64,000 nt of DNA from an uncultured delta proteobacterium (GTDB lineage Bacteria > Desulfobacterota > Binatia > UBA9968), in the NCBI GenBank assembly GCA_963760795.1, contig CAVXEP010000019.1:1-64000 (forward strand). The letters run 5' to 3'. Of this stretch, positions 3,178 through 19,229 are shown in pieces. Under the pieces are notes generated by a model, which had not been told where the DNA came from, did no database searches, and was given only the letters and a program-made list of their open reading frames with translations. The translations under genes were made by a program, and so were the position numbers. Each line of letters starts with the position of its first letter. Positions within the stretch are counted from its first letter, which is position 1.

Positions 3178-4359
3178 TCATCGTGCGCTCGCGTGATGCC
3201 CCTGCTGGTAGTGCAAGCGCAACAGATCCTTGCCGTAGTCGTTGCCGTTGGGTGTGCGCACGATGACATGGATATGATCTTTGTACGGTTTGGTGCGTTC
3301 GCGAAAGGCGATGCCGCGTTGGTGGTCGAACTCGACGATGATCACCGGACTCTGGACGCGATAGTAAAAGACGCCGTCGTCAGAGCCGCCGCCCATCCAG
3401 CAAAAGTAGGTGTCGTTCAAATGGCGCTTGACTTCGTCCATCTTGACCTGGGCATGGCCGTCGCGCATGCGACCGACGTGATATTCCACCAAGCCGAGCA
3501 GTAACTCATGTTGCGCGCTGGACAGCTCGCCGGAGCGGATGCCTTGGTAATCGAGCACGAGGTTGTCGCGAAACGCGGTGGTAAAGTCTTCGCCGGAAGT
3601 CTCGGGCGCGATCACCGTTTTCACGCGTTGCGCTTCTGAAAGCGCGCGGAACAATGCCAGGCCGCGGTCTTCGTCGCCCTTGAATGCGCGCACGCCGGCG
3701 TATTTGCCGCTGACGGCATGCACCGGTTCCGCGCCCAAGAACGTCGGCGTCACGACGATCTGATCGCCGAGGATAAAATAATTGATGATCAAATGATGGC
3801 CGTCCCACTGCCAGCCCCATGGCTCGGTGGCCGACGGCGCGCCCATGATGCTGAGCCAGTAAAGGTCCTCTCCATATTCACTGAGCCTACCGGTCATCTC
3901 TTGCACGGTTTCATTCAAGTGCATGAGATCGAGCGTTTCCTCGAAGCCCCGTTGACTTAAACTTTCGCGCAGGAGCGCAAAGGCGCAGTCACGCTGGCCG
4001 TCGGTCATCTCGAATAGCGCCGTGCCGTGGCGCATCAGCGTCGGATGAATATTGCTCCACTTGCGCCACTGATCGGTTTCCACGGGAAAGATAGTCTTGG
4101 CGCTCTGCTCGGCGCTTAACGATCCGAGAAATTCCTCTGCCGCTGCGCGAATCGACTGCGTCGAAACGCCGGTTTGCTCGATGCCGAACAAGCCGGGAAT
4201 AACGCGGCCGTCGGTGGTAATGCCTTTGAACGGCTCGGCCGCGGCCGCCAATGATTTTTCCAAGTAGTTCGGCCCACCGCCTTGCTTGTGCAGTGGCCGC
4301 TGCGGTCCGCGTTGATGGCAGGTTTCGTGCATGCCGCGAGTGCGGGGATCGCTGGACAT
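3178..4359 (-). CDS. DUF3500 family protein
   Basis: PWGWQWDGHHL, TPTFLGAEP, YYRVQSP, EFDHQ, HIHVIVRTPNGNDYG motifs. Confidence 0.85.
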   Translation of the reverse strand: MSSDPRTRGMHETCHQRGPQRPLHKQGGGPNYLEKSLAAAAEPFKGITTDGRVIPGLFGIEQTGVSTQSIRAAAEEFLGSLSAEQSAKTIFPVETDQWRKWSNIHPTLMRHGTALFEMTDGQRDCAFALLRESLSQRGFEETLDLMHLNETVQEMTGRLSEYGEDLYWLSIMGAPSATEPWGWQWDGHHLIINYFILGDQIVVTPTFLGAEPVHAVSGKYAGVRAFKGDEDRGLALFRALSEAQRVKTVIAPETSGEDFTTAFRDNLVLDYQGIRSGELSSAQHELLLGLVEYHVGRMRDGHAQVKMDEVKRHLNDTYFCWMGGGSDDGVFYYRVQSPVIIVEFDHQRGIAFRERTKPYKDHIHVIVRTPNGNDYGKDLLRLHYQQGHHASAR

Positions 4360-4549: not shown

Positions 4550-5125
4550 TCATCGCGTTCCTTTCGCTGAAACCGCTTCGGATAAGAGCGCCTGGATAAT
4601 TGCTTTGGCCGGTGCACTTTCCCAATCTCGTGGTCCGACGGTGCGCGCCACGGCTCGTCCGTCGCGACCGATTAGAAAAGTGGCAGGTAGACCGATGACG
4701 CCGTAGGCGGTATTGATCTCTCCCGTTGGGTCGAGCATCAGCGGGAAGGTTAAGCGCAGTTCTTTGGCGTATCGATGGATGGCTGGAGTGCCCTCGCGCG
4801 CGTTAATGCCTATAACGCTGAGCCCACGCGCCGCGAACTCACGATGCAGTCGCTCGAACATCGGCATCTCTGGACGACACTCGTTACACCAGCTCGCCCA
4901 GAAATTGACGAGAACAACCTTGCCGCGCAGAGAATCCAAGGAAACTGTTCGGCTATCAAGCGTGGTGCCCTTGAACTCCGGTGGCTTGGTGCCGGGCCGA
5001 TAGCCGGACAGTTTCAGTCCATCCAATAGCTCCGCGACATCGGCCCGACTTAGCTCTGGAGCCCCAACGATCGCCACAATCGCGATGAGGATTCCGGCGA
5101 TGCTCTTTTTTGCTCGGTTAGCCAT
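4550..5125 (-). CDS. TlpA/ResA family thiol-disulfide oxidoreductase
   Basis: LRGKVVLVNFWASWCNECRPEMP, YGVIGLPATFLI; N-terminal hydrophobic anchor. Confidence 0.92.
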   Translation of the reverse strand: MANRAKKSIAGILIAIVAIVGAPELSRADVAELLDGLKLSGYRPGTKPPEFKGTTLDSRTVSLDSLRGKVVLVNFWASWCNECRPEMPMFERLHREFAARGLSVIGINAREGTPAIHRYAKELRLTFPLMLDPTGEINTAYGVIGLPATFLIGRDGRAVARTVGPRDWESAPAKAIIQALLSEAVSAKGTR

Positions 5126-5215
5126 TTTTTTCGCCGCTTCGTCGGCATGGCTGGGGTCACCGAGGACACACGCGGTCAGCAACGAACTGACGAGCGCCCT
5201 CGGTGGCTCACCCAG

Positions 5216-5773
5216 TCATTTCTTGGCGACGATTTCCTGAATATCCTTCAGCAGCGTGGCGCTATACACGACATCCGTCGTCGGGTTCGCGAGAACCCAC
5301 TTCTTGCGGATCACACCCTGGGGGTCGATGAGAAAGAACGTCCTGATCGAGGTCATCCATTTGTCATTGAGCACCCCGAAGCTGCGGATCATCTTCCGCT
5401 CCGGAAAATCGCTGAGCAACGGGTACGGCAACTTCAGCGAGTCGGCAAAGGTCTGCTGCGCAAACGTGTTGTCGGCGCTAACGCCGAGGATCTGGACACC
5501 GAGGGCTTCGAAGCGCTTGTAGTCGTTCTTCCTGGCCGACAGGTTCGCGGCACAGGTTGGAACAAAAGCCGCGCCGTAGAACTCAAGGAAGACCCACTTC
5601 TTGCCTCTGAAGTCATTGAGGGAAACGTCTAGCCCCGTGGTGGCCGGCAGCGTGAAGTCGGGCGCCTTGTCGCCTACTTCGAGGGCCCGGGCACCGCTGG
5701 CCCAGCCCAGCCCGATAGCTAGGAGCACTGCGCCGACAAGCAGAACCTTTCCTCGATGTATTCGTTTATTCAT
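5216..5773 (-). CDS. exported AhpC/TSA peroxiredoxin-like redoxin
   Basis: [34 protein letters not shown]; signal peptide. Confidence 0.88.
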
Positions 5774-5853: not shown

Positions 5854-6837
5854 TCACCGGATGATTCGGTTCGCCTTGTACAACGCCTCCGGGGCGATCT
5901 TGATCGCCGATGCCTTGGCAACCTTTAGATTGACGACAAATTCGATATGTTGATTTACTTCAACTGGAATCTCAGCCGGTTTCTCCCCTTTCATAATTTT
6001 GTCCACTAGGCGCGCGGCCATGCGGCCGGATTCATGGAGATCTGAACCGTAGCTCGCGAGACCGCCGTTCTCCGCCCACCAACTGGTAAAAAACATTGTT
6101 GGGATCTTGCGTTGAGACGTGGCCTCCACGGCAAAACCAAGAATGTTGAAAGAAAGCGAGCGCGGCACCACGATGCCATGCACGTCACTGCCCCGAACAG
6201 TGGCAAAGGCCGCCTGCGCTTCTTCCTGGCTGTGTACCGGTTTCTCGATTAGAGCGATATTTAACTGCCGGGCAGTGTCGCGGAAATTCTTGGCCTGGGC
6301 CGCGGAGAAAGTCTCAGACGCATTATAGGCGAACATTACCCGCTTGAGTCCGGGGATCATATCTTTAAGAACCGCCAAACGCTTGGTGTCCAACTCGAGG
6401 TCGATATCCGTAATTCCGGTGATGTTGCCGCCTGGATGGGCAAGACTTTGGATCAACCCCAGTCCTATGGGATCAGCCGCGCCGTAAAAGACAATCGGGA
6501 TCTTTTTCGTTACCGCCTGGGCGGCCTTGGTCGCTGCGGGGTTTACGGTGAATAAAACGTCCACGCCCTGCTGTACGAGCTGCCGCGCCGCTGCCGGAAG
6601 AGCGGCTATATCGCCTTGGGTGAATCGGACGCCGAGCACAAAATCTTTATTCTCCCGGTAGCCAAGCTTTTCCAGACCGTCGCGCAGACCGGCCACGCCC
6701 GGCGTCGGTCCCCAAGAATCGGTAAGCACGCCAATTTTAATGGGTGTTTTACGCTCTGCCGCGCGTGAGTCAGCGGCCAAGAGCCCGCAGCTGAACGCGA
6801 GTATGACAAATATAAAGTGACGCCCCAGCACTTTCAT
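5854..6837 (-). CDS. ABC substrate-binding protein (ABC_sub_bind type)
   Basis: DPIGLGLIQSLAHPGGNITG, GGLASYG, KGEKPAEIPVE, VNLKVAK. Confidence 0.9.
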   Translation of the reverse strand: MKVLGRHFIFVILAFSCGLLAADSRAAERKTPIKIGVLTDSWGPTPGVAGLRDGLEKLGYRENKDFVLGVRFTQGDIAALPAAARQLVQQGVDVLFTVNPAATKAAQAVTKKIPIVFYGAADPIGLGLIQSLAHPGGNITGITDIDLELDTKRLAVLKDMIPGLKRVMFAYNASETFSAAQAKNFRDTARQLNIALIEKPVHSQEEAQAAFATVRGSDVHGIVVPRSLSFNILGFAVEATSQRKIPTMFFTSWWAENGGLASYGSDLHESGRMAARLVDKIMKGEKPAEIPVEVNQHIEFVVNLKVAKASAIKIAPEALYKANRIIR

Positions 6838-6929
6838 CACCCTCGCCAGTTCCAATGCAATTTTCCCGTCGAGGCGGAGTAGACCTTAATTCGCCGGCGG
6901 AAGCAATTCGAGGCTTCGAGCGTAGCGCG

Positions 6930-7118
6930 CTAATATTGTGCCAAAGCACCCGGCTCCGGGCAGTAGGGCAGGCAGTCGGCGCAGCCGGTGCATTCGCTCG
7001 CGATCACTTCGTACATGTGATGGATATCTTGCATCTTGGGATGGACGGCGCGTTCGGGGCAGACTTCGCGGCACAGGCCGCAGGCGATGCAGAGGGATTC
7101 GACGATTTTGACTTTCAT
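6930..7118 (-). CDS. 2[4Fe-4S] ferredoxin
   Basis: CIACGLCREVCP and CTGCADCLPYCP; alternative start at 7139 overlaps upstream stop. Confidence 0.9.
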   Translation of the reverse strand: MKVKIVESLCIACGLCREVCPERAVHPKMQDIHHMYEVIASECTGCADCLPYCPEPGALAQY

Positions 7119-7131
7119 GTTTGCGCTCAGT

Positions 7132-7872
7132 TCACGCATTGCCGCCCAGGGCGCGGCTCGGTTCCGGCGCCCAGGGGCGCAGGAGAAAGTCGAATACTTC
7201 TTCGATGGGCTTCTGATCCTCGGGCGTTAACGCGTAGGCGTCGATCTGATATTTGCCTTCCATGAAGTGCATTAGTTCTTCCGCCGATTGGCTGTGCAGT
7301 TGATGGCGGATCAGGTCGTCGTCGATGACGCTCAAGGTCGCGGCGATGCCGAGGCAGGCCATGGACTCGTTGTAATAATGCTGGCCGGCACGGGCGAGGG
7401 GGTGGATATGCGGGAACATGGCGGTCATGCCGAAATAGGAAAGCTTCGGCTGAGTATTCGCCCGCGCGTCGTCCATCAATTCTTCTTCGCGTTTGATGAA
7501 GCCGCCGCGCAGCAGCACATCGGCGTGGAGCTGGCCATGCTTGACCTCGTCCCAGATTTGCCGGGCGCGCATGCGCTGCAGGTCGATATACTTCGGTTGC
7601 TGGTCGATGCTGACCGAAAGAATTTGCGTCGACATTTGCTTCAACGACATGAACGGCCCTTCGGCGGCGTAGCCGCCGCGCGCCCGCGCCGCTTTGTATT
7701 CGTCGCTGCCCGATTGCAAATCATTCTCGGCGGCCTTGATCGCTTGCAGCACCAGCTTGTCCCACAGCGGCAGGCAACGCTCGGTCTGGCGCAGGCGAAA
7801 GTCGACGCCGGGGCCGGTGAAGCCGGTGGGATACACCCATTTCTCTAAGAAGTCATTCAGAATGGCATGCAT
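7132..7872 (-). CDS. ferritin-like carboxylate di-iron protein
   Basis: E(AAEG)...DEVKH...E(NESM)...EELMH ligand pattern of four-helix di-iron proteins. Confidence 0.75.
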   Translation of the reverse strand: MHAILNDFLEKWVYPTGFTGPGVDFRLRQTERCLPLWDKLVLQAIKAAENDLQSGSDEYKAARARGGYAAEGPFMSLKQMSTQILSVSIDQQPKYIDLQRMRARQIWDEVKHGQLHADVLLRGGFIKREEELMDDARANTQPKLSYFGMTAMFPHIHPLARAGQHYYNESMACLGIAATLSVIDDDLIRHQLHSQSAEELMHFMEGKYQIDAYALTPEDQKPIEEVFDFLLRPWAPEPSRALGGNA

Positions 7873-7891
7873 TTTAAGCTCCGTTGCAAAG

Positions 7892-7970
7892 GTTTCATTA
7901 GTTCCAGAGGTTCCAGTCGTTCAAAACGTTCAAGCCGTTCAAATCGTTCGTTCAAGGTTCAATCGTTCAA
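7892..7970. repeat. GTTC(A/C)A ~9-nt-period tandem repeat
   Basis: gttccagag gttccagtc gttcaaaac gttcaagcc gttcaaatc ... Confidence 0.85.
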
Positions 7971-8260
7971 GGCAGGCGCGGCCAGCGTTTATTTTCGGTC
8001 CAAACTTCCGGCGGCGGTGGCACCATCGAACGGCCGGTGGCGCTCTCGACGATGGAGCCTGCGGCGGGACAGTACATCAAGCATACCGTGCAACCGGGGT
8101 AGGTGCAGCGCTCGTCGATTTCCAAAAAATGCTGCGATGTCGGCGACACGACCACAGCGTTGATCTCGATCTCGCGGCAGGCGACGTAGCACATGCGGCA
8201 TTCGGTGCATTTACCATGATCAATCTTGAGTTTTGCTGTCGCCATCTTGTTTTCAATCAC
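7967..8260 (-). CDS. 2[4Fe-4S] ferredoxin-like protein
   Basis: CTECRMCYVAC and CTYPGCTVCLMYCP; Pro-rich C-terminal tail. Confidence 0.85.
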   Translation of the reverse strand: MIENKMATAKLKIDHGKCTECRMCYVACREIEINAVVVSPTSQHFLEIDERCTYPGCTVCLMYCPAAGSIVESATGRSMVPPPPEVWTENKRWPRLP

Positions 8261-8278
8261 ACCCCTGGAAAAACGTTT

Positions 8279-8383
8279 GTTCCAAGTGTTCCAAAAAGTT
8301 CCAGAGGTTCCAGCTGTTCAATGCGTTTCGTTCAAGGTCGGAGTCCGGAAAACGTTGAACTTTTGAACCTTGAACCCTTGAAC
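8279..8383. repeat. GTTC(A/C)A tandem repeat with inverted TTGAAC arm
   Basis: gttccaagt gttccaaaaa gttccagag gttccagct gttcaatgc ... ttgaac ttttgaac cttgaac ccttgaac. Confidence 0.85.
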
Positions 8384-8395
8384 GGCTGTTATCTT

Positions 8396-9145
8396 TTAAT
8401 CTATATCCGCCTGCACGGTCACTTCGCCGGCTTTCTCTTCTGCCATACCGAGGACGAAGCGGGCGGTTTCTTCAAGGAAGAACAGATAGTCGCGCTTGGT
8501 TTCCGTACATAAGCGTTTGGCCAATTCGCTGTCGACCGCTTTGTGAACGTACTGCTCGACCTGATGGCGGCCCATCAGCACATGGCTGCGGGTCTCGGCC
8601 AGTTGGCTGTGAAATACCGCGCGCATGGATTGATCCGGTAACGACTCGGCGAATCTCTCGGTCCAGGCGAGCTCGATGACCTTCGGGCCGAGATTGAGCG
8701 CGGCGATGCGGATGTTGTGCGGATAGTTGGCCAGCGCGCGCAGGCAAAAAATATAGGCGCCAGTGCGGGTGGCGGTGCCGAACTGGCCGTAGGGATGGGC
8801 GAACAGAGCGCGCTGGGTCGGCACGAAACGGCGGCGCAGAATCTCGTCGCAGTATTGCATTTCCTGCGACGACTCGTCGTAGGTCTGCTTGCCGAAGAGA
8901 TAAGCGACAGCCGGCGGATACTCGTTTAAATTTATTCCTTGCGCCCAACCGCCGTAGACATAGTAGAGCATGCGTTTGAGCGTCCACAGCCGGGCGAGCA
9001 GGCGGAAGCAGTGGTCGTTGGTGAACTTTCCCGCGCGCGCCGCGTCGACCACGGCGTCCATCGGCGTGATGGCGGCGTCCTGCTCGCTTTGTTTGAGCAG
9101 TTGCGCGGCAAGGGCGGCGCCGGGTTTGTCGGATCGGATCGTCAT
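8396..9145 (-). CDS. ferritin-like protein with degenerate di-iron ligands
   Basis: KQTYDESSQ aligns by eye to RQIWDEVKH, and HSQLAETRSHVLMG to HSQSAEELMHFMEG of 7132-7872; similar length. Confidence 0.6.
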   Translation of the reverse strand: MTIRSDKPGAALAAQLLKQSEQDAAITPMDAVVDAARAGKFTNDHCFRLLARLWTLKRMLYYVYGGWAQGINLNEYPPAVAYLFGKQTYDESSQEMQYCDEILRRRFVPTQRALFAHPYGQFGTATRTGAYIFCLRALANYPHNIRIAALNLGPKVIELAWTERFAESLPDQSMRAVFHSQLAETRSHVLMGRHQVEQYVHKAVDSELAKRLCTETKRDYLFFLEETARFVLGMAEEKAGEVTVQADID

Positions 9146-9252
9146 GGCTGATTTTGTAATGTTAAGCTCAACTCAATGCGGCTTCAGCGACGTCGATCCG
9201 GTTTCTTGCCTCATGAAGAGTCTTTGACAAAATTCGCAGTGGTCCCAATGCT

Positions 9253-9332
9253 GTCATCCCGAGCCGAGCGAGGAATCTCGCCTTGTCTGGCGCTTACAAA
9301 GACGAGATTCCACGGTTTTGCCTCGGAATGAC
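9253..9332. repeat. GTCAT-type REP-like palindromic doublet
   Basis: gtcatcccgagccgagcgaggaatctcg ... cgagattccacggttttgcctcggaatgac. Confidence 0.75.
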
Positions 9333-9405
9333 TGCTGCGACACAGGCTGTCGAGAGGAAAGGAGTCGGAATCGGATTTCGCTGTACTCGTGAATTGCCCC
9401 ATCCT

Positions 9406-10521
9406 TCAGCTCGCCGCCAATAATCTCTCGTGACCCTTCTTCGAGATCGGCGCCAATTGATCGGTGATCAGCGCCCAACTCTCGCCGTTGTCTTCGCTGC
9501 AATAAACCTCGCCGCCAGTCGTCCCGCCGAAGATCGCGCAGTCGCCGTTGGCTTCTTCCAGACAGAGCGCGCCGAACTCATGCTTCAAGCTTGCCGGCAG
9601 TCCGCCGGCCAGGCGCTGCCAGTTCTTGCCGCCGTCCTTGCTGCGATAAATTTTTCCTTCAGCGCGGGCATCCGCGCCGGCTTTACGCCAGGTTGTCGGA
9701 TTATGCTCAGCGGCGGCGACAAACATGGTGTCGGGATTTTTCGGATTCCACACGAAACCGTCGGGATAGACATCTTTCGCCCAATCGTCCGCCGTCCAGC
9801 GTTCCCAGCTGCCGCCGCCGGTGTGGGTGACGTAAAGTCCGGCGCCGCCGGTGACGTAGATTCTTTCGGGATCGCGCGGATCGATCAAACAACGGTGCAC
9901 GTCGTAGAAGTGTTCCACCGGGCGGTTCTTGTCTTTGTACAGGCCCACGGTGTTGAGCTCGCGCCAGCTCTTGCCGAGGTCGGTGCTTTTGAGAAACGCG
10001 CCTTGCTCGACGCAGGCGTAGAGTGTGTGCGCATCGCGGGGATCGAAGGTAATGAATTTCGTATGGGCGATATGCGGCGGCGCCGGGAAGGACCATTGGG
10101 CAGTGGTCGGCACTTCGCGCAGCGAGGGAATATCGCTCCAATGCATGCCCAAGTCTTCGCTGACGAACAAATGCGCCGGTTGCGTGCCGGCGTAGACGCG
10201 GACTTTGCCGTCGACGACGTGGGCGGCCAGGCTGTAGACGTCGTGAATCGTCATGCCGTTATCGCGGCGCTCCCAGGTTTTGCCGCCGTCGGCGCTGGCG
10301 TGAATCGAGCCGAAGAACGCGCCGGCGAACATGGTGCCGGTGGTCTGCTCGAAGATGATCGCGCTGATATGCTGACCGCGCAGGGCGCGCTGGACTTCGC
10401 GCCAGCCATCGTTGCCGCGCTCGAATAGCGCAAGCCCATCCTGGGTGGCGACCCAAAGCTGCTTGGAGCGCTCGCCCGCCGAATAAACATTGGTCCCGCC
10501 GTGAGAGAGTCCGATTGCCAT
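9406..10521 (-). CDS. Asp-box (BNR) beta-propeller protein, no signal peptide
   Basis: Repeated SxDGGxxW motifs (SADGGKTW, SEDLGMHW, STDLGKSW, SKDGGKNW, SEDNGESW). Confidence 0.85.
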   Translation of the reverse strand: MAIGLSHGGTNVYSAGERSKQLWVATQDGLALFERGNDGWREVQRALRGQHISAIIFEQTTGTMFAGAFFGSIHASADGGKTWERRDNGMTIHDVYSLAAHVVDGKVRVYAGTQPAHLFVSEDLGMHWSDIPSLREVPTTAQWSFPAPPHIAHTKFITFDPRDAHTLYACVEQGAFLKSTDLGKSWRELNTVGLYKDKNRPVEHFYDVHRCLIDPRDPERIYVTGGAGLYVTHTGGGSWERWTADDWAKDVYPDGFVWNPKNPDTMFVAAAEHNPTTWRKAGADARAEGKIYRSKDGGKNWQRLAGGLPASLKHEFGALCLEEANGDCAIFGGTTGGEVYCSEDNGESWALITDQLAPISKKGHERLLAAS

Positions 10522-10687
10522 AGGTCACCTCCGCTATGCTTGACTTTGATTTGCCAACCTTGCGATAGGCGCACTCTAGCAACCGAGGTTCTTCGCCGTC
10601 AATGGTTCGCCGTGAGATTAAGTTTAGCGCCATTGACGGCGCGGCGCCGCTTCGGTTAGTTTCCGGCCATGGGCTTTGAGGGTTCCG

Positions 10688-11696
10688 ATGAAAATCGCTA
10701 GACCGTATTGGCTGCTGCTGGCGCTGGTTGGGCTGAGTTTGCATGCCATTGAGAGCCAAGCGCAGCTTAGCAAAACCACGACTTCCTACGTGTCCGATTC
10801 GGCCGGTGTCTTGCCGCTCTGGCTCGCCAAGGAGGCCGGTATCTTCGCGCGCAACGGCTTGGACGTGCAGGCGGTGCGAGTGCACGCCGCCGTCGGAGTC
10901 ATGGCGCTGATGTCCGGCGAGCTGCAATTCGTGCTGATATCAGGACCGGTCGCGGTCGAAAGCGCCCTGCGCGGCTCCAATATGGTCTACGTCGCCGGCG
11001 GCATGTCGACGCTGGACTTTGTCCTGGTTACCCGGCCGGAAATCAAAACCGCCGAACAACTCAAAGGCGGCACCGTCGGCTTGTCGGCGATCCGCGGCGC
11101 CAATCCGACCGCCACCCGATTCGCGCTGCAAAAGCTTGGCCTGGCGCCAAAGGAGGTATCGCTCCAGGTGATCGGCGGCACCAGCGAGCGAATCGCCAGC
11201 CTGCGGCTTGGGAAAAATCCACGGGACTTTGTTTAGTCCGCCGCAAAGCATCACGGCGCAGCGCGAGGGCTTCAATGCTCTGGCGGATGTCGCCGAACTC
11301 GGCTTGCCGTTCGTGCATATCGGCGTGGCGACCACCCGCGCCGTCATCCGGGACAGACCGGAGCTCGTGCGCCGCTACGTCAAATCCCATGTCGAGGCGA
11401 TCGCGCTGATGAAGACCGATCGCGACTTGGCGATCAAGGTGCTGGCGAAATATCTTGGGCAAATAAAAGAGCGCGATGTCCTGGCGCAATCCTATGACAC
11501 CGCCGCGCCGGATAACCGGATCTCGCGCAAACAATATCCGTCCGTCGCCGGTCTGCAAATGGCCCTCGATTTATTGGCCGACGATAATCCCAAAGCGAAG
11601 GTTGCTAAACCGGACGACTTCATCGACAACCGTTTTATCAAAGAGCTCGACGACAGCGGCTATATCGACAGTCTGTATAAGCCCAAGCCGCGCTGA
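10688..11696 (+). CDS. NMT1/SsuA-type ABC substrate-binding protein, frameshifted near 11215
   Basis: ORFs 10676-11236 and 11208-11696 join at a GGGAAAAA run; C-terminal FIKELDDSGYIDSLYK. Confidence 0.85.
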
Positions 11697-11786
11697 GAGA
11701 ACTAAAAATATCGCGATGACGTGCTGCGGCATTTAACTTGACTCAAACGGTTGGTCTATCTAGGCTCCGCGGCGGGAGGGGAACAA

Positions 11787-12743
11787 ATGCTTAAGCGCCG
11801 ATCTTGGCTTTGCCTAACACTGCTATTGCTCGTTGGCAGCATCCGGCCTGCTGCCGTCGATGGCCGAATGGTCGTCGGCGTGTCGACGGTGAACGTCGCC
11901 TTCTTGCCAATCTATCTGACCCAAGACAAAGGCTTCTTCAAAGACGAGGGCTTGGACGTTCTCGTCGTCATGTTCAACGCCGGCGCGACTAATCTTCAGG
12001 CGATGATCGGCGGCGACGTGCAGGTCATGGCCGGCGGCTTGCCGGAGACGGTGCTTGCCAGGGCCGGCGGTTTGGATATCAAAAATTTTTGGGCGATCTC
12101 CAATCTTATGCCGTTTCAGATCTACGGCAGCCCGAGCATGAAATCGCTGAAGGACGGCAAGGGGAAAAAGTTTGCCATCAGCCGCTTCGGCTCGTTGTCG
12201 GAATTTCTCACCCGCTCGGCGCTGCGCCGGGCCGGAGTCGATCCCAAAGACGTTACCATGTTGCAGATCGGCGCCACGCCGGCGCGCTTTACCACGCTGG
12301 CGAGCGGCATCGTCGATGCGACGATTCTATGGTTTCCCGTCACCGAGCGCGCCAAAGCGGCTGGCTTGAATAAGCTCTTCGATCTGAAAGATCTCTATCC
12401 CAACTGGACCAACGTCGGCTTTGTCGCCCGCGAAAGCTGGCTCGCCAAAGAAAAAGAGCAAGCGACGAAATTTTTGCGCGCTTACCAGCGTGGCGTGAAG
12501 CACACCCGCGAGAATCGCGACGATGGCATTCGCGCCTTGAGAAAATATGTTGGGCTAGACGCCGCCGAAGCCGCCGCCGGATACGACGAGTACCGCGATT
12601 CCTTTCCAATGGACGGGCGCATCCTCGACGCCGGCATTACCGCCACGGTCGAGCAGGAGATCGAGACCGGCAGGCTGAAGGGAAAAATCTCGCTGAGCGA
12701 GATGATCGACGGCAGCTTCATCAATTTGTTCGGGAAAAAGTAG
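11787..12743 (+). CDS. NMT1/SsuA-type ABC substrate-binding protein
   Basis: Signal peptide, KGFFKDEGLDV, GKKFAISRFGS. Confidence 0.9.
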   Translation: MLKRRSWLCLTLLLLVGSIRPAAVDGRMVVGVSTVNVAFLPIYLTQDKGFFKDEGLDVLVVMFNAGATNLQAMIGGDVQVMAGGLPETVLARAGGLDIKNFWAISNLMPFQIYGSPSMKSLKDGKGKKFAISRFGSLSEFLTRSALRRAGVDPKDVTMLQIGATPARFTTLASGIVDATILWFPVTERAKAAGLNKLFDLKDLYPNWTNVGFVARESWLAKEKEQATKFLRAYQRGVKHTRENRDDGIRALRKYVGLDAAEAAAGYDEYRDSFPMDGRILDAGITATVEQEIETGRLKGKISLSEMIDGSFINLFGKK

Positions 12744-16099: not shown

Positions 16100-17206
16100 C
16101 TAGTCCAGCCAATCCTTGTCCTTCAATTTTCTCGGCAAGTAGGTCTTCGTCAAGTACTGAAAATCTTTATTCGCCAGGGCATCGAGCTCGAATTTGAGGC
16201 CGCTGGTCAGCATGCCTTTGATTTCTTCCTGCCATTCTTTTTTCTGAAACCATTTGTATTTCATCAGTTCTTTGGCGCGGTTGATGTCTTTGTCGTTCAA
16301 CTTGATGCCGACGTTGCGTGGCAGGCCGTAGCGCTCCGGGTCGGCGCTGGAGAAGCCGATGAACTTCGCCTTGGGTATCGCCATGCGTTCGCTTTCGAAG
16401 GCCAGGTTGATCGAGCCCTGCTTGATGACCGAGTAGATATAATAGCCCCAGGGATCATTGTCGACGAGAACATAGACCGGCAGCTTGTAGTCTTCGTGCA
16501 GCCGGCGCGCCAGCCGGCGCACGCCGCGCGGCGGTTGGCCGTTGCCGGTGAGCAGGATGCAATTGTACCGGCGCCAAAATTTATCTTCCGACAGCCGGTT
16601 CCATTGGGTGCCTTTTTCGACCAGCAGGACGAAGTCCGCCGTGCACTTGCTGATCTGAATATATTCCGGTTCGACGATGGACGGCACCGAGTAGCCGCCT
16701 TTACCCAACTTGGTGCAATCGACCCGGTCGCCGTCATCGACGATGGTCAACGGCCCGACGACGGTGCCGGAATTCTCGGCGCGGACATGCAGTTCTTCGC
16801 GCAGCGCTTCGAGGGTGACTTCGAGATCTTCGATCAACGGGTCGGATTCGTTCTGGCCGTCGAAGGTGTTTTCGTTGGAGTCCTTGATCGTGTGCTTGGT
16901 GCGGTAATAAATTTCCCGCAGTGAAGTGGTCAGGTTGGCACGCTGTAACTCGGCCAGAGCATCGGCGACGAGCACCGTCTGCATGAATTTTTTGGCCATG
17001 CCGACATTGAAAAACGTGCGCGCCTGCTTGCGCCGGCCCATCTCGATGATGCCGCGCTTCGCGTTGAAGTTGACGTTGGCCAGGCTGCGCACCGGAATCG
17101 CCAGCGATGGGTCCTGGCTGCGCTGCGCCGCGCTGATCACGACATCGGCGACGCCGATCAGTTTTTTTTCGACTACGCCGTTATTTTTTAGTTTTTTTGC
17201 CGCCAT
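16100..17206 (-). CDS. top6A: DNA topoisomerase VI subunit A (Spo11-like)
   Basis: SLREIYY catalytic Tyr region, LLVEK, GNGQP, VDNDPWG Toprim DxD, FELDAL. Confidence 0.93.
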   Translation of the reverse strand: MAAKKLKNNGVVEKKLIGVADVVISAAQRSQDPSLAIPVRSLANVNFNAKRGIIEMGRRKQARTFFNVGMAKKFMQTVLVADALAELQRANLTTSLREIYYRTKHTIKDSNENTFDGQNESDPLIEDLEVTLEALREELHVRAENSGTVVGPLTIVDDGDRVDCTKLGKGGYSVPSIVEPEYIQISKCTADFVLLVEKGTQWNRLSEDKFWRRYNCILLTGNGQPPRGVRRLARRLHEDYKLPVYVLVDNDPWGYYIYSVIKQGSINLAFESERMAIPKAKFIGFSSADPERYGLPRNVGIKLNDKDINRAKELMKYKWFQKKEWQEEIKGMLTSGLKFELDALANKDFQYLTKTYLPRKLKDKDWLD

Positions 17207-19229
17207 TTTTCTTTCCTGTCTTTTTGCCGGGTTTTTCCAGAGGCAGAGTCAGTTGCTTGGTGTCTTTGGATTTCGCGCCGCGTTGTTGCCGCGGTTTGGT
17301 GGCGCGCGGCTGGGTCGTTTTGGCAGATGGCGATTTGCCCTTCGCCATGGAGGGCAGCGCCGGTTCTGCATCGTCGGCAGTGCTGTTCTGGGTTAACTCA
17401 GCGTCAATCGGCGCCGCGCTTGGCAGATTCGGGTGCGTCGCCCTCGGCGCCTTCCTCGGTGACGATAATCGAATGCGGCAAGCCTTCCGGCCCGCCGCCA
17501 TCATGGCCGAGGATCTCGTCGATCTTTTGTCCGCCGGTGCGCTTGGTGGCGATCTTCTGCAACTGTTCTTTGAGTTTTTCTTTGGCGAGCTTGCCGCCTT
17601 TCAGCCGGGCGCAGGCGTCGACCACTTCCTCGATGTAGAGCTCGAAGACGTTGCGCCGGCGGAATTCATCCTTGGCCCGTTCCCGGCGTCGCAAAAAAAC
17701 TCCCAGCCGCCGGCCGCACTCTTGCAAGGCGAGTTTGATTTCTTTTCTGATCTCGTCGTAGTCGGCGATGGCTTCTTTGGACTCGCTGGTGAAGGGCACC
17801 CAGACCGACGCCATGTGCACGAAGATCACCATCGGTCCGGCGGGCAGCGCGCCGCGCGACTGCGCCACGCCGTAGTTACGCCAACTGGTGTCGAGGACCG
17901 ATTTGAACGTCGCGCAGGCGGACTGCTGGTAGAGCAGCGGCACGCGGTTGGCGTAGCGGATCACCGAGGCTAACTCGTTGTCGTCGTCTCGGTCTTCGCC
18001 TTCGGCGAGCGGGATGTTTTGCTCTTTCACTTTTGCTGCTTGTTCCGGCGCTTTGCCGTAGGCCAGTCCGGCTTCAATCACAAACGGATTGCCGCGATAG
18101 ACCGCCGGCGGCCGGGTCACGGCGGTGTAAAATTCGCCTTTGATCTGTTTGTACAATCCATGGAGTATCGCCCGCTCGCCGATGGGTGAGATACAGTTGC
18201 TCGGCGGCGCCATGATCTTGGTCGACTGGATCGCCTTGTAAAACGTTTCGGCGGCGGCGCCGTGCAGGTCGCGCGGCTTAGCGTTTGGCGAAAGCTTGGC
18301 GGTCTTGCAAATGTCCTGCGCCAGACTCGACGACACCCGGCTAAACTCGCTGGCGAGAAATCCCACTAGAGTATTGGCTCTTGGTGTCATGGAGCATCTT
18401 CAGCATCATGCCGAATTCAATTCCATAGGGATGCGGCTTGATCTCGCGCGGCTGCGGCGGCAGCTCGTCAATGGTCCGCGGATATTGTTTAATCTCGCCT
18501 TCCGGCGTGTGGTAGACGAGTTTGACATGGGGATTGGCGATGGCCGTTTGTTCCAGGTATTCGTCCACCGAGGCGCGGCCCTTTTGATAGCGCCCTTCGA
18601 TTTCCAGACTGACCTGGGTGCCGCGGTGGTTTTCCCAGTCGATCTTTTTGTTCTCGAAAATTCGCGGCTCGTTTTTCTTGGTATCGATCTGCACTTCGAA
18701 ATAGTGCGCCGGCGCCTTGGCGCTGGTGCGCGAAATGATCTGCACCGGCTTGCCGGTGGTGAGCTGGGCGTACATGCCGGCGGCGGAGATGCCGATGCCT
18801 TGCTGGCCGCGGCTCATGCGCAGGCGATGAAACTTCGAGCCGTAGAGCAGCTTGGCAAAGATCGGCGGGATCTGCTGGCGCACGATGCCCGGACCATAGT
18901 CGATGACGGTGACGCGGAAGCGCGTCGCCTGGCTCGGCGCCGGCGTGACGCCATTGTTGGGCTACCACTTCGAGTTTGACGATGACTTCCGGCAAAATGC
19001 CCGCCTCTTCGCAGGCATCCAGCGCGTTGTCGACCGCTTCTTTGATACAGGTGAGCAGCGACTTGCGCGGACTGTCGAAACCCAACAGGTGGCGATTCTT
19101 GGTAAAGAACTCCGATACGGAAATGTCTCTCTGGCGCGCGCCCATCTCGGCGGCGGTGACGACTTTTCTCGGTTCGGCCGGCGCCACCGGTGTGGCTGCC
19201 GCTTCGGCCTTTGGCATGGGTTTAGACAT
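17181..19229 (-). CDS. top6B: DNA topoisomerase VI subunit B, split by frameshifts near 18960, 18380 and probably 17430
   Basis: ISVSEFFTKNRHLLGFD, KEAVDNALDACEE, SRGQQGIGIS GHKL motifs, RYANRVPLLY, VPFTSESKEAIA; end 17404 as read, or 17181 if a third frameshift restores a Lys-rich tail. Confidence 0.9.

Follow-up and report, generated by a model that had tools for sequence, protein, structure and literature searches.

The DNA analysed here, called the window throughout, is a stretch of 64,000 nucleotides (positions 1 to 64,000, forward strand) of contig CAVXEP010000019.1 from the assembly GCA_963760795.1 of an uncultured delta proteobacterium of the class Binatia. It carries a cassette of four genes in which two related helical proteins, A and B, are each followed by a small 2[4Fe-4S] ferredoxin, and which is considered below as a candidate two-subunit oxygenase or oxidase of the superfamily of heme-oxygenase-like di-metal oxidases and oxygenases (HDOs). 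All four open reading frames lie on the minus strand, in the order B, ferredoxin, A, ferredoxin and at the coordinates that a preliminary description of this DNA, made from the letters alone, had given them:

8396-9145, minus strand: B, a 249-amino-acid ligand-degenerate HDO-like subunit
7967-8260, minus strand: fdxB, a 2[4Fe-4S] ferredoxin whose Pro-rich C-terminal tail is conserved; translation probably begins at the ATG at 8245
7132-7872, minus strand: A, a 246-amino-acid HDO-like subunit, the putative catalytic di-metal subunit
6930-7139 (open reading frame), minus strand: fdxA, a 2[4Fe-4S] ferredoxin; likely start 7118

The start of fdxA follows from its orthologues, which begin MKVKIV and so place the gene at 6930-7118, 13 nucleotides past the stop codon of A. 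A and B are each present in a single copy in the window's own genome (G000), and residues and motifs are numbered after the window's own A and B.

The AlphaFold models of the two proteins (pLDDT 83 for A and 84 for B), which are predicted and not experimental structures, both have the seven-helix heme-oxygenase-like fold. In a VIA structural search, which is independent of Foldseek, the model of A matches TenA (1rtw; Z 13.2, root-mean-square deviation 3.4, 193 residues aligned), CADD (12.6), HrmI (12.3), UndA (12.1) and BesC (11.0), the top rows aligning 193-207 residues, with ferritin-like chains lower and shorter (PaaA, Z 10.7 and 173 aligned; Dps, about 10 and 140-155 aligned). The model of B matches TenA (Z 15.7, deviation 3.2, 189 aligned), CADD (15.0), BesC (14.4), HrmI (13.2), AetD (13.0) and UndA (12.8); its first 24 rows, from Z 15.7 down to 11.8, all have the heme-oxygenase-like fold, and the best ferritin-like chain reaches 11.6. 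With Foldseek, A has UndA, TenA and MiaE in its best rows, and B has PolF, PqqC, TenA and CADD. Because Z values of this order are not decisive for helical bundles, a link in sequence was sought.

A profile of A, run against 1.84 billion representatives, gave 107 matches, mostly fragments. Six distant full-length relatives of A (P0298, P0307, P0309, P0335, P0340 and P0347) make up what is termed here the bridging clade, and in hhalign comparisons this clade joins both A (99.6%, E 5.6e-24, 206 columns) and B (99.6%, E 4.1e-24, 223 columns) to the PF14518-type (Haem_oxygenas_2) paralogues of the window's genome (97.4%, E 1.3e-11, 217 columns). The control, the four PaaA/PaaC (PF05138) proteins of the same genome, reached 0.8% with the bridging clade, 0.3% with A and 0.7% with B. 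The direct signal between A and B is weak (BLASTP E 2e-5 over 120 residues; hhalign 45%, E 2e-4), and it is through the bridging clade that the paralogy proposed in the preliminary description is strongly upheld. Its assignment of a ferritin fold is not supported, given the first rank of heme-oxygenase-like chains and the 97.4% against 0.8% of the profile comparison. This profile evidence makes A and B homologues of one another and of the HDO superfamily rather than of the ferritin-like PaaA/PaaC family; since neither has the canonical ligand set described below, they are regarded as divergent relatives of the superfamily, not as ordinary members. Sequence searches of the PDB, with single proteins and with profiles, gave chance-level rows only (E 0.14-0.97) and none that was significant, and the earlier statement that the pair matches no named family or characterised operon agrees with the Pfam, NCBIfam and PDB sequence searches. 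HDO (PF14518) paralogues are strongly expanded in G000, where 16 match at E<=1e-8 and about 30 by iterated profile (examples lie at C32:184467-185177, C32:245427-246290 and C22:228700-229386); 40 relatives of G000 have between 3 and 23 per genome.

The putative ligands of A lie in the motifs E71, D108-E109-x-x-H112, E169 and E198-E199-x-x-H202, the full E..DExxH..E..EExxH set with which A had been credited and which is invariant in 45 of 45 copies. In alignment with HDOs, E109xxH112 coincides with the Glu...His helix of HDOs, E169 with their Glu and Q195xxxE199xxH202 with HxxxDxxH, and E71 is an additional Glu on the preceding helix. The site accordingly counts two His (H112 and H202), four Glu (E71, E109, E169 and E199) and, at the position of the third His, Gln195, each of these seven positions being invariant in 45/45, as are H157, H190, D108 and E198; H155 is kept in 43/45. 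In the window's B the first motif reads D90-E91-S-S-Q94 and the first-helix Glu position is K57. Across 43 copies of B, position 57 is Lys in 36, Glu in 5 and Asn in 2, position 91 is Asp or Glu, Q181 is present in 41 and H188 in all, and two carboxylates are lost throughout, K155 and T185 standing in their places in 43/43. The view of B as ligand-degenerate is thereby supported. The His-to-Gln change in DESSQ, which had been taken as part of this degeneration, is no trait of the B family: position 94 is His in 31 of the 43 copies and Gln in 12, limited to near relatives of the window. B nonetheless retains D90, E95, H117, E158, E184 and H188 and has 39 invariant columns among 24 diverse sequences, and it is, as far as sequence conservation tells, under strong purifying selection.

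The preliminary description had envisaged a heteromer of the two proteins, and as a prediction this is borne out. The modelled complex of A with B scores an ipSAE of 0.82 (runs 0.86, 0.82 and 0.82) against 0.01 for the best control, and 0.82 is, by a calibration that applies only roughly, a mark attained by 116 of 157 solved complexes and by 2 of 215 mismatched pairs. The runs have at least 92% of their contacts in common, with a partner pLDDT of at least 87. The predicted interface is formed by residues 72-139 of A and 58-122 of B and includes the most conserved stretches of both: conservation in A is 0.871 at the interface and 0.785 elsewhere (permutation p about 0.008), and in B 0.835 against 0.699 (p about 0.0003), with 13 of 34 interface positions invariant against 20 of the remaining 215.

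Each paralogue has its own 2[4Fe-4S] ferredoxin, as had been supposed, and the two ferredoxins are highly conserved. Both match Pfam Fer4_21 (36.1 and 50.1 bits, cut-off 35) and have, in the window, the two Cys motifs and eight cluster ligands of clostridial-type 2[4Fe-4S] ferredoxins; they share 36% identity (E 1e-6). In fdxB all eight Cys are kept in 46/46 copies, the second motif being Cx4Cx2Cx3CP, and in fdxA seven are kept in 45/45. In 7 of the 45, for example in L040 and L044, Asp (CTGD) takes the place of the eighth, C53, which stands second among the Cys of the second cluster motif; the pattern is familiar from ferredoxins whose cluster is Asp-ligated or of the 3Fe type. The database protein P0050 (319 amino acids) is an in-frame fusion of A with fdxA, and P0056, whose C-terminus is garbled, is a second possible fusion of this kind, though it may be a frameshift.

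A maximum-likelihood tree was built from 41 rows, namely 12 of A, 12 of B, 7 of bridging proteins and 10 of HDO paralogues. A and B each form a monophyletic group in it (100/100 in both cases) and, together with the bridging clade, are split from the HDO paralogues (100/100). A joins the bridging proteins P0298, P0353 and P0307 (99/97), and because of this grouping B is taken to have diverged earlier. The trees of A and of B are broadly congruent. The one bridging protein whose contig was examined, the single-subunit P0309 in locus L066, is immediately preceded by a 74-amino-acid 2[4Fe-4S] ferredoxin that is 43-46% identical to fdxA (E about 4e-16) and 29-33% identical to fdxB. A further open reading frame of 291 amino acids in L066 was considered as a relative of A or B and rejected, being unrelated to either. 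The bridging clade is rare: P0298 has two clusters, and in a 301-genome sample of the phylum of G305, whose contig is labelled Dehalococcoidia, the search for the clade returned the cassette of G305 itself and three weak matches only. The sequences fit an old duplication of a [protein + ferredoxin] module, and to that extent the ancient duplication that had been proposed stands, with the L066 ferredoxin in its favour; the duplicated protein was probably no ferritin, and A and B are not simple sisters.

Homologues of both proteins are numerous. At E<=1e-3, and counted as clusters at 90% identity, there are 317 for A and 707 for B, and members of the families are present in soil, groundwater and marine metagenomes. 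All matches that have a name at their source are called 'hypothetical protein' except P0050, named 'ferredoxin', and the few that give an organism mostly give Candidatus Binatia or Deltaproteobacteria. A scan of one genome per species yielded 46 loci. One of them, L012 in genome G303, contributes to the counts only; its contig may also be the source of P0165, which forms a row in alignments A2 and A3. All four genes have the same order and strand in 43 of the 46 loci; in the remaining three (L019, L036 and L039) the contig ends inside the cassette, and no other order was found. The arrangement, whose conservation had been anticipated, is far beyond chance, and contig ends aside A without B or B without A occurs in none of the 46. 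By the records' own titles the loci belong to Binatia or 'delta proteobacterium', Rokubacteria/Methylomirabilota, Dormiibacterota, Verrucomicrobiia, Chloroflexota/Dehalococcoidia and Gammaproteobacteria. In loci from outside Binatia the packing of the genes is tight, with spacers of 0-30 nucleotides.

Closer to the window the distribution is uneven. Of 24 further species of the genus, among which G309 serves only as one in the count, 12 have A; it was found in none of 16 genomes that represent two other families of the same order, and in none of 300 other genomes of an even phylum sample, which holds one other genome of the family of G000 and so speaks for patchiness rather than absence. In three sister species without the cassette, genes that flank it elsewhere, those for a BNR propeller and a DUF3500 protein, stand side by side, 253, 128 and 383 nucleotides apart in G308, G315 and G323. 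Two other sisters bear scars: G307 (L082, G307:C353, 2529-2849) has the last 41 codons of A and fdxA left, and in G322 (L083, G322:C36, 2403-4151) an IS110-family transposase (Pfam Transposase_20 and DEDD_Tnp_IS110) stands in place of B, fdxB and A, with fdxA left behind. These neighbours and scars together indicate that the cassette was ancestral at this site in the genus, is dispensable and has been lost repeatedly. The BNR and DUF3500 genes are a conserved adjacent pair in the genus even without the cassette (G308:C4, G315:C504 and G323:C13), and G000 has three further BNR paralogues elsewhere in the genome, at 43-51% identity.

Starting from the gene order, the paralogy, the HDO homology and the ligand pattern, all of which have been demonstrated, and from the predicted fold and A-B contact, we read the cassette, with a probability of roughly 55%, as a ferredoxin-wired two-subunit oxygenase or oxidase of HDO type, to which no substrate is assigned and whose metal binding, use of O2 and electron path we infer. 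A would be the catalytic subunit, with a pair of metal ions (Fe/Fe or Mn/Fe) bound by E109, H112, E169, E199 and H202 together with E71, and with Gln195 in place of the canonical third His of HDOs. B would be an old paralogue unable to build the site, since Lys155 and Thr185 replace two carboxylates; it would pair with A through its most conserved segment, KRMxYYVYGGW...NEYPP, and have a non-catalytic role, either structural or in gating the substrate. The two private 2[4Fe-4S] ferredoxins would bring electrons to the site in A, and because they supply it the reduced cluster could activate O2 over repeated turnovers, which would point to a monooxygenase- or desaturase-type reaction. A bolder form of this proposal, tentative and on balance doubtful, would make the cassette the first HDO of multicomponent build, the equivalent in the heme-oxygenase fold of what the multicomponent monooxygenases of bacteria are; A and B, with a new di-metal site of 2His/4Glu/Gln type, would form an obligate heterodimer in which B would gate substrate or O2 or relay radicals via the invariant Tyr/Trp-rich YYVYGGW, the ferredoxins would be a built-in wire, and the module would move between phyla into different pathways.

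The genes around the cassette bear on its possible role. In the window they are:

9406-10521, minus strand: BNR/Ycf48-like beta-propeller, a conserved upstream neighbour in Binatia-type loci only; context, not core
5854-6855, minus strand: ABC substrate-binding protein
5216-5773 and 4550-5182, minus strand: two peroxiredoxins
3178-4359, minus strand: DUF3500 protein, directly after fdxA in many Binatia-type loci; context, not core

Across loci the four cassette genes alone are constant. Of 28 Binatia-type loci, 25 carry the BNR propeller upstream, at 64% identity or more, and the other three are cut by the contig start; DUF3500 often follows. In L029-L032 the cassette belongs to a tight co-oriented block (L029, 5632-13214; L030, 3582-9963) in which it is followed by an adenylation-thiolation-thioesterase (A-T-TE) protein of 900-950 amino acids and then by an MIO aromatic amino-acid lyase or mutase, with a family III coenzyme A (CoA)-transferase first in three of the four; the best NCBIfam match of the MIO lyase is the BagA/FevW tyrosine ammonia-lyase, below cut-off. 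Rieske/VanA-like oxygenases, MarR and MFS genes accompany the Dehalococcoidia loci, and genes for SnoaL, CoA-transferase III and enoyl-CoA hydratase lie near the bridging protein of L066. From these contexts an aromatic or amino-acid-derived acid, possibly as a thioester of CoA or of a carrier protein, can be offered as a low-confidence guess at the substrate. No PaaB, PaaD, PaaE or flavin reductase stands next to the cassette, and no open reading frame of the window between 1 and 20,516 matches a flavin-reductase family, in keeping with the earlier remark that none is nearby. A ZnuA/ABC-3 metal ABC importer lies directly upstream of B and co-oriented with it in L042, L044 and L046, and a lineage-specific open reading frame for a membrane protein of about 210 amino acids follows fdxA in L042-L045; an 'open reading frame' of 237 amino acids in L035 looks spurious.

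Several observations weigh against the proposed two-subunit HDO. Neither A nor B has the canonical 3His/3carboxylate or 3His/4carboxylate set of HDOs, Pfam and NCBIfam assign them 0 families at E<=1 and no PF14518 match, and direct hhalign comparison of either with the PF14518-type paralogue alignment is not significant (A 1%, B 6.8%). The Foldseek matches are weak, none falling below 1e-3 (best E 6e-3 for A and 4e-3 for B), and VIA Z values of 12-16 lie in the range where helical bundles can match by arrangement alone. The complex was predicted on the analysis's own alignments, which is why its calibration is rough, and its score may reflect likeness to solved HDO dimers; the permutation test on the interface disregards both the contiguity of positions and their nearness to active-site helices. 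Half of the sister species live without the cassette, which marks it as dispensable, and the substrate guess is weak, the contexts behind it being few, partly related and lineage-dependent and CoA-transferases and NMT1-type binding proteins being abundant in these genomes.

In the alternative that follows the preliminary description, A and B would be di-iron proteins with a ferritin-like fold, akin to PaaA/PaaC or to the alpha/beta subunits of monooxygenases, and would form a multicomponent ferritin-fold oxygenase; A does present its ligands in the classic order E, ExxH, E, ExxH on four successive helices. Ferritin-like chains also appear in the structure lists (PaaA at Z 10.7 and Dps at about 10 for A, an ADO-type chain at 11.6 for B), an RNR-R2 motif match is weak (E 0.14), and an Atlas lead pointed to DUF455 clusters, for which PF04305 was found in 0 of 41 relatives but also in 0 of 14 control genomes, so that this search was uninformative. 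Heme-oxygenase-like chains, however, stand above all ferritin-like ones and cover 190-205 residues rather than 140-175, the bridging clade aligns with PF14518-type HDOs at 97.4% and with the PaaA/PaaC proteins of the same genome at 0.8%, and the last-helix motif aligns with the HDO HxxxDxxH column for column, all of which makes a ferritin-fold enzyme very unlikely. Still less probable are metal-free proteins of the TenA/PqqC branch with the ferredoxins as unrelated neighbours: TenA chains are the top structural match of both models, but A has invariant Glu and His at the HDO metal-binding positions, and every locus keeps the ferredoxins as part of the cassette, to which they are translationally coupled, with one A-fdxA fusion on record.

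An HDO-like site could also serve another chemistry. The cassette might encode a ferredoxin-driven scavenger that uses the di-metal site to reduce O2, H2O2 or NO and so corresponds in function to rubrerythrin or the flavodiiron proteins. In favour of this, the module is self-contained, brings its own electron carriers and has no partner enzyme that is constant across phyla, and redox-stress genes do lie near some loci (the two peroxiredoxins of the window, OsmC and rhodanese in L040, thioredoxin-like and Usp proteins in L032 and L028), as does the metal importer in L042, L044 and L046. We consider this improbable: the stress genes are not conserved among loci, DUF3500 directly following fdxA in most Binatia-type loci; it is not obvious why a scavenger would need a degenerate partner that is conserved and rich in invariant polar and aromatic residues; and the tight six-gene operon with A-T-TE synthetase and MIO lyase in one lineage looks like small-molecule metabolism. 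Comparably unlikely is that A and B are two separate, sequential enzymes with one ferredoxin each, B being mononuclear or metal-free like TenA/PqqC. The pairing of one ferredoxin with each protein would suit this, as would the strong conservation of B, which has 39 invariant columns in 24 diverse sequences and keeps D90, E95, H117, E158, E184 and H188, and mononuclear-iron HDO variants are described in a 2026 review (PMC13108848); against it stand the high-confidence heterodimer prediction, with its interface on the most conserved segments of both proteins, and the constant company of A and B in the 46 loci, contig ends aside.

Some features of the locus lie outside the question of function. 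The spacers 7873-7966 and 8261-8395, between B, fdxB and A, are filled by T[TG]GAAC arrays with a period of 8-9 nucleotides and have the exact 16-mer CTGGAACCTCTGGAAC in common. Such arrays occupy the same spacers in many Binatia-type loci (about 5 per 100 nucleotides against a background of 0.2), the genome G000 has 190 arrays of at least three units, and the spacer piece 7908-7948 also occurs in metatranscriptome contigs with unrelated flanks; they are a lineage-wide intergenic repeat to which no role is assigned. An Rfam scan of 6800-11800 gave 0 matches at E<=1 and no riboswitch, and a scan for promoters and terminators did no better than shuffles (3 vs 2.1 and 7 vs 6.5). Contigs from RNA libraries of two studies match B (e.g. 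8898-9139, a single mismatch), the junction of A with fdxA (7095-7245) and the gene for the BNR propeller, which shows presence in RNA libraries only and does not prove transcription. Farther along the window, 16100-17206 and 17404-18390 (minus strand) hold adjacent genes for the A (Spo11/Toprim) and B (transducer) subunits of topoisomerase VI, a type IIB enzyme better known from archaea and plants and unusual in a bacterial genome.

Among characterised systems, PaaA/PaaC and the alpha/beta subunits of bacterial multicomponent monooxygenases combine a catalytic di-iron subunit with a paralogue that has lost its ligands and are fed by iron-sulfur carriers. A and B would follow the same logic of catalytic and dead paralogue, but the fold of those systems is ferritin-like (hhalign 0.8%). 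TenA and PqqC are not known as di-metal enzymes, and from these best structural matches of both models the cassette differs by the invariant metal-ligand set of A. Among the nearest known systems are the HDOs (UndA, CADD, SznF, BesC, HrmI, AetD and PolF; PF14518), which A and B resemble in predicted fold and through the bridging profile link of 97.4%, and whose ExxH, Glu and last-helix xxxE/DxxH ligand positions align with A. What defines the family, according to the review, is the seven-helix fold together with a site of 3His/3carboxylate or 3His/4carboxylate type, and the extra Glu of A recalls the SznF-type 3His/4carboxylate enzymes; the same text states that the HDOs studied so far need no protein effector, and the words 'ferredoxin', 'reductant' and 'heterodimer' do not occur in it (PMC13108848). 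The cassette departs from these HDOs in the Gln that replaces the first His of HxxxDxxH in 45/45 copies of A, in the degenerate partner, in the two dedicated ferredoxins and in the blindness of Pfam to A and B.

A dedicated electron donor for an HDO is nonetheless on record, in the case that comes closest to the cassette. [quoted passage not shown] Both systems co-encode an electron-transfer partner, putative in the cassette and in Mbo needed for multiple turnovers. In that report MboB is an NAD(P)H/flavin/[2Fe-2S] reductase, of which the cassette has no equivalent, its partners being two small 2[4Fe-4S] ferredoxins, and Mbo lacks a second HDO-like subunit (PMC13185094). A search of the full-text literature, subscription-only papers aside, found, as judged by titles, abstract openings and the two 2026 papers, neither a heteromeric HDO nor one with a 2[4Fe-4S] ferredoxin partner.

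The known HDOs are mostly stand-alone natural-product enzymes whose re-reduction in the cell is largely unexplained. To these the cassette would add a naturally occurring heterodimer in which one subunit is active and the other dead, a physiological donor of iron-sulfur type encoded beside each subunit, and a ligand set in which Gln replaces His. The six-gene operon of L029-L032, with its A-T-TE protein and MIO lyase, would offer a direct route to the substrate. Because the family comprises hundreds of clusters that are invisible to Pfam and NCBIfam, the cassette would represent an unannotated yet common enzyme of uncultured bacteria.

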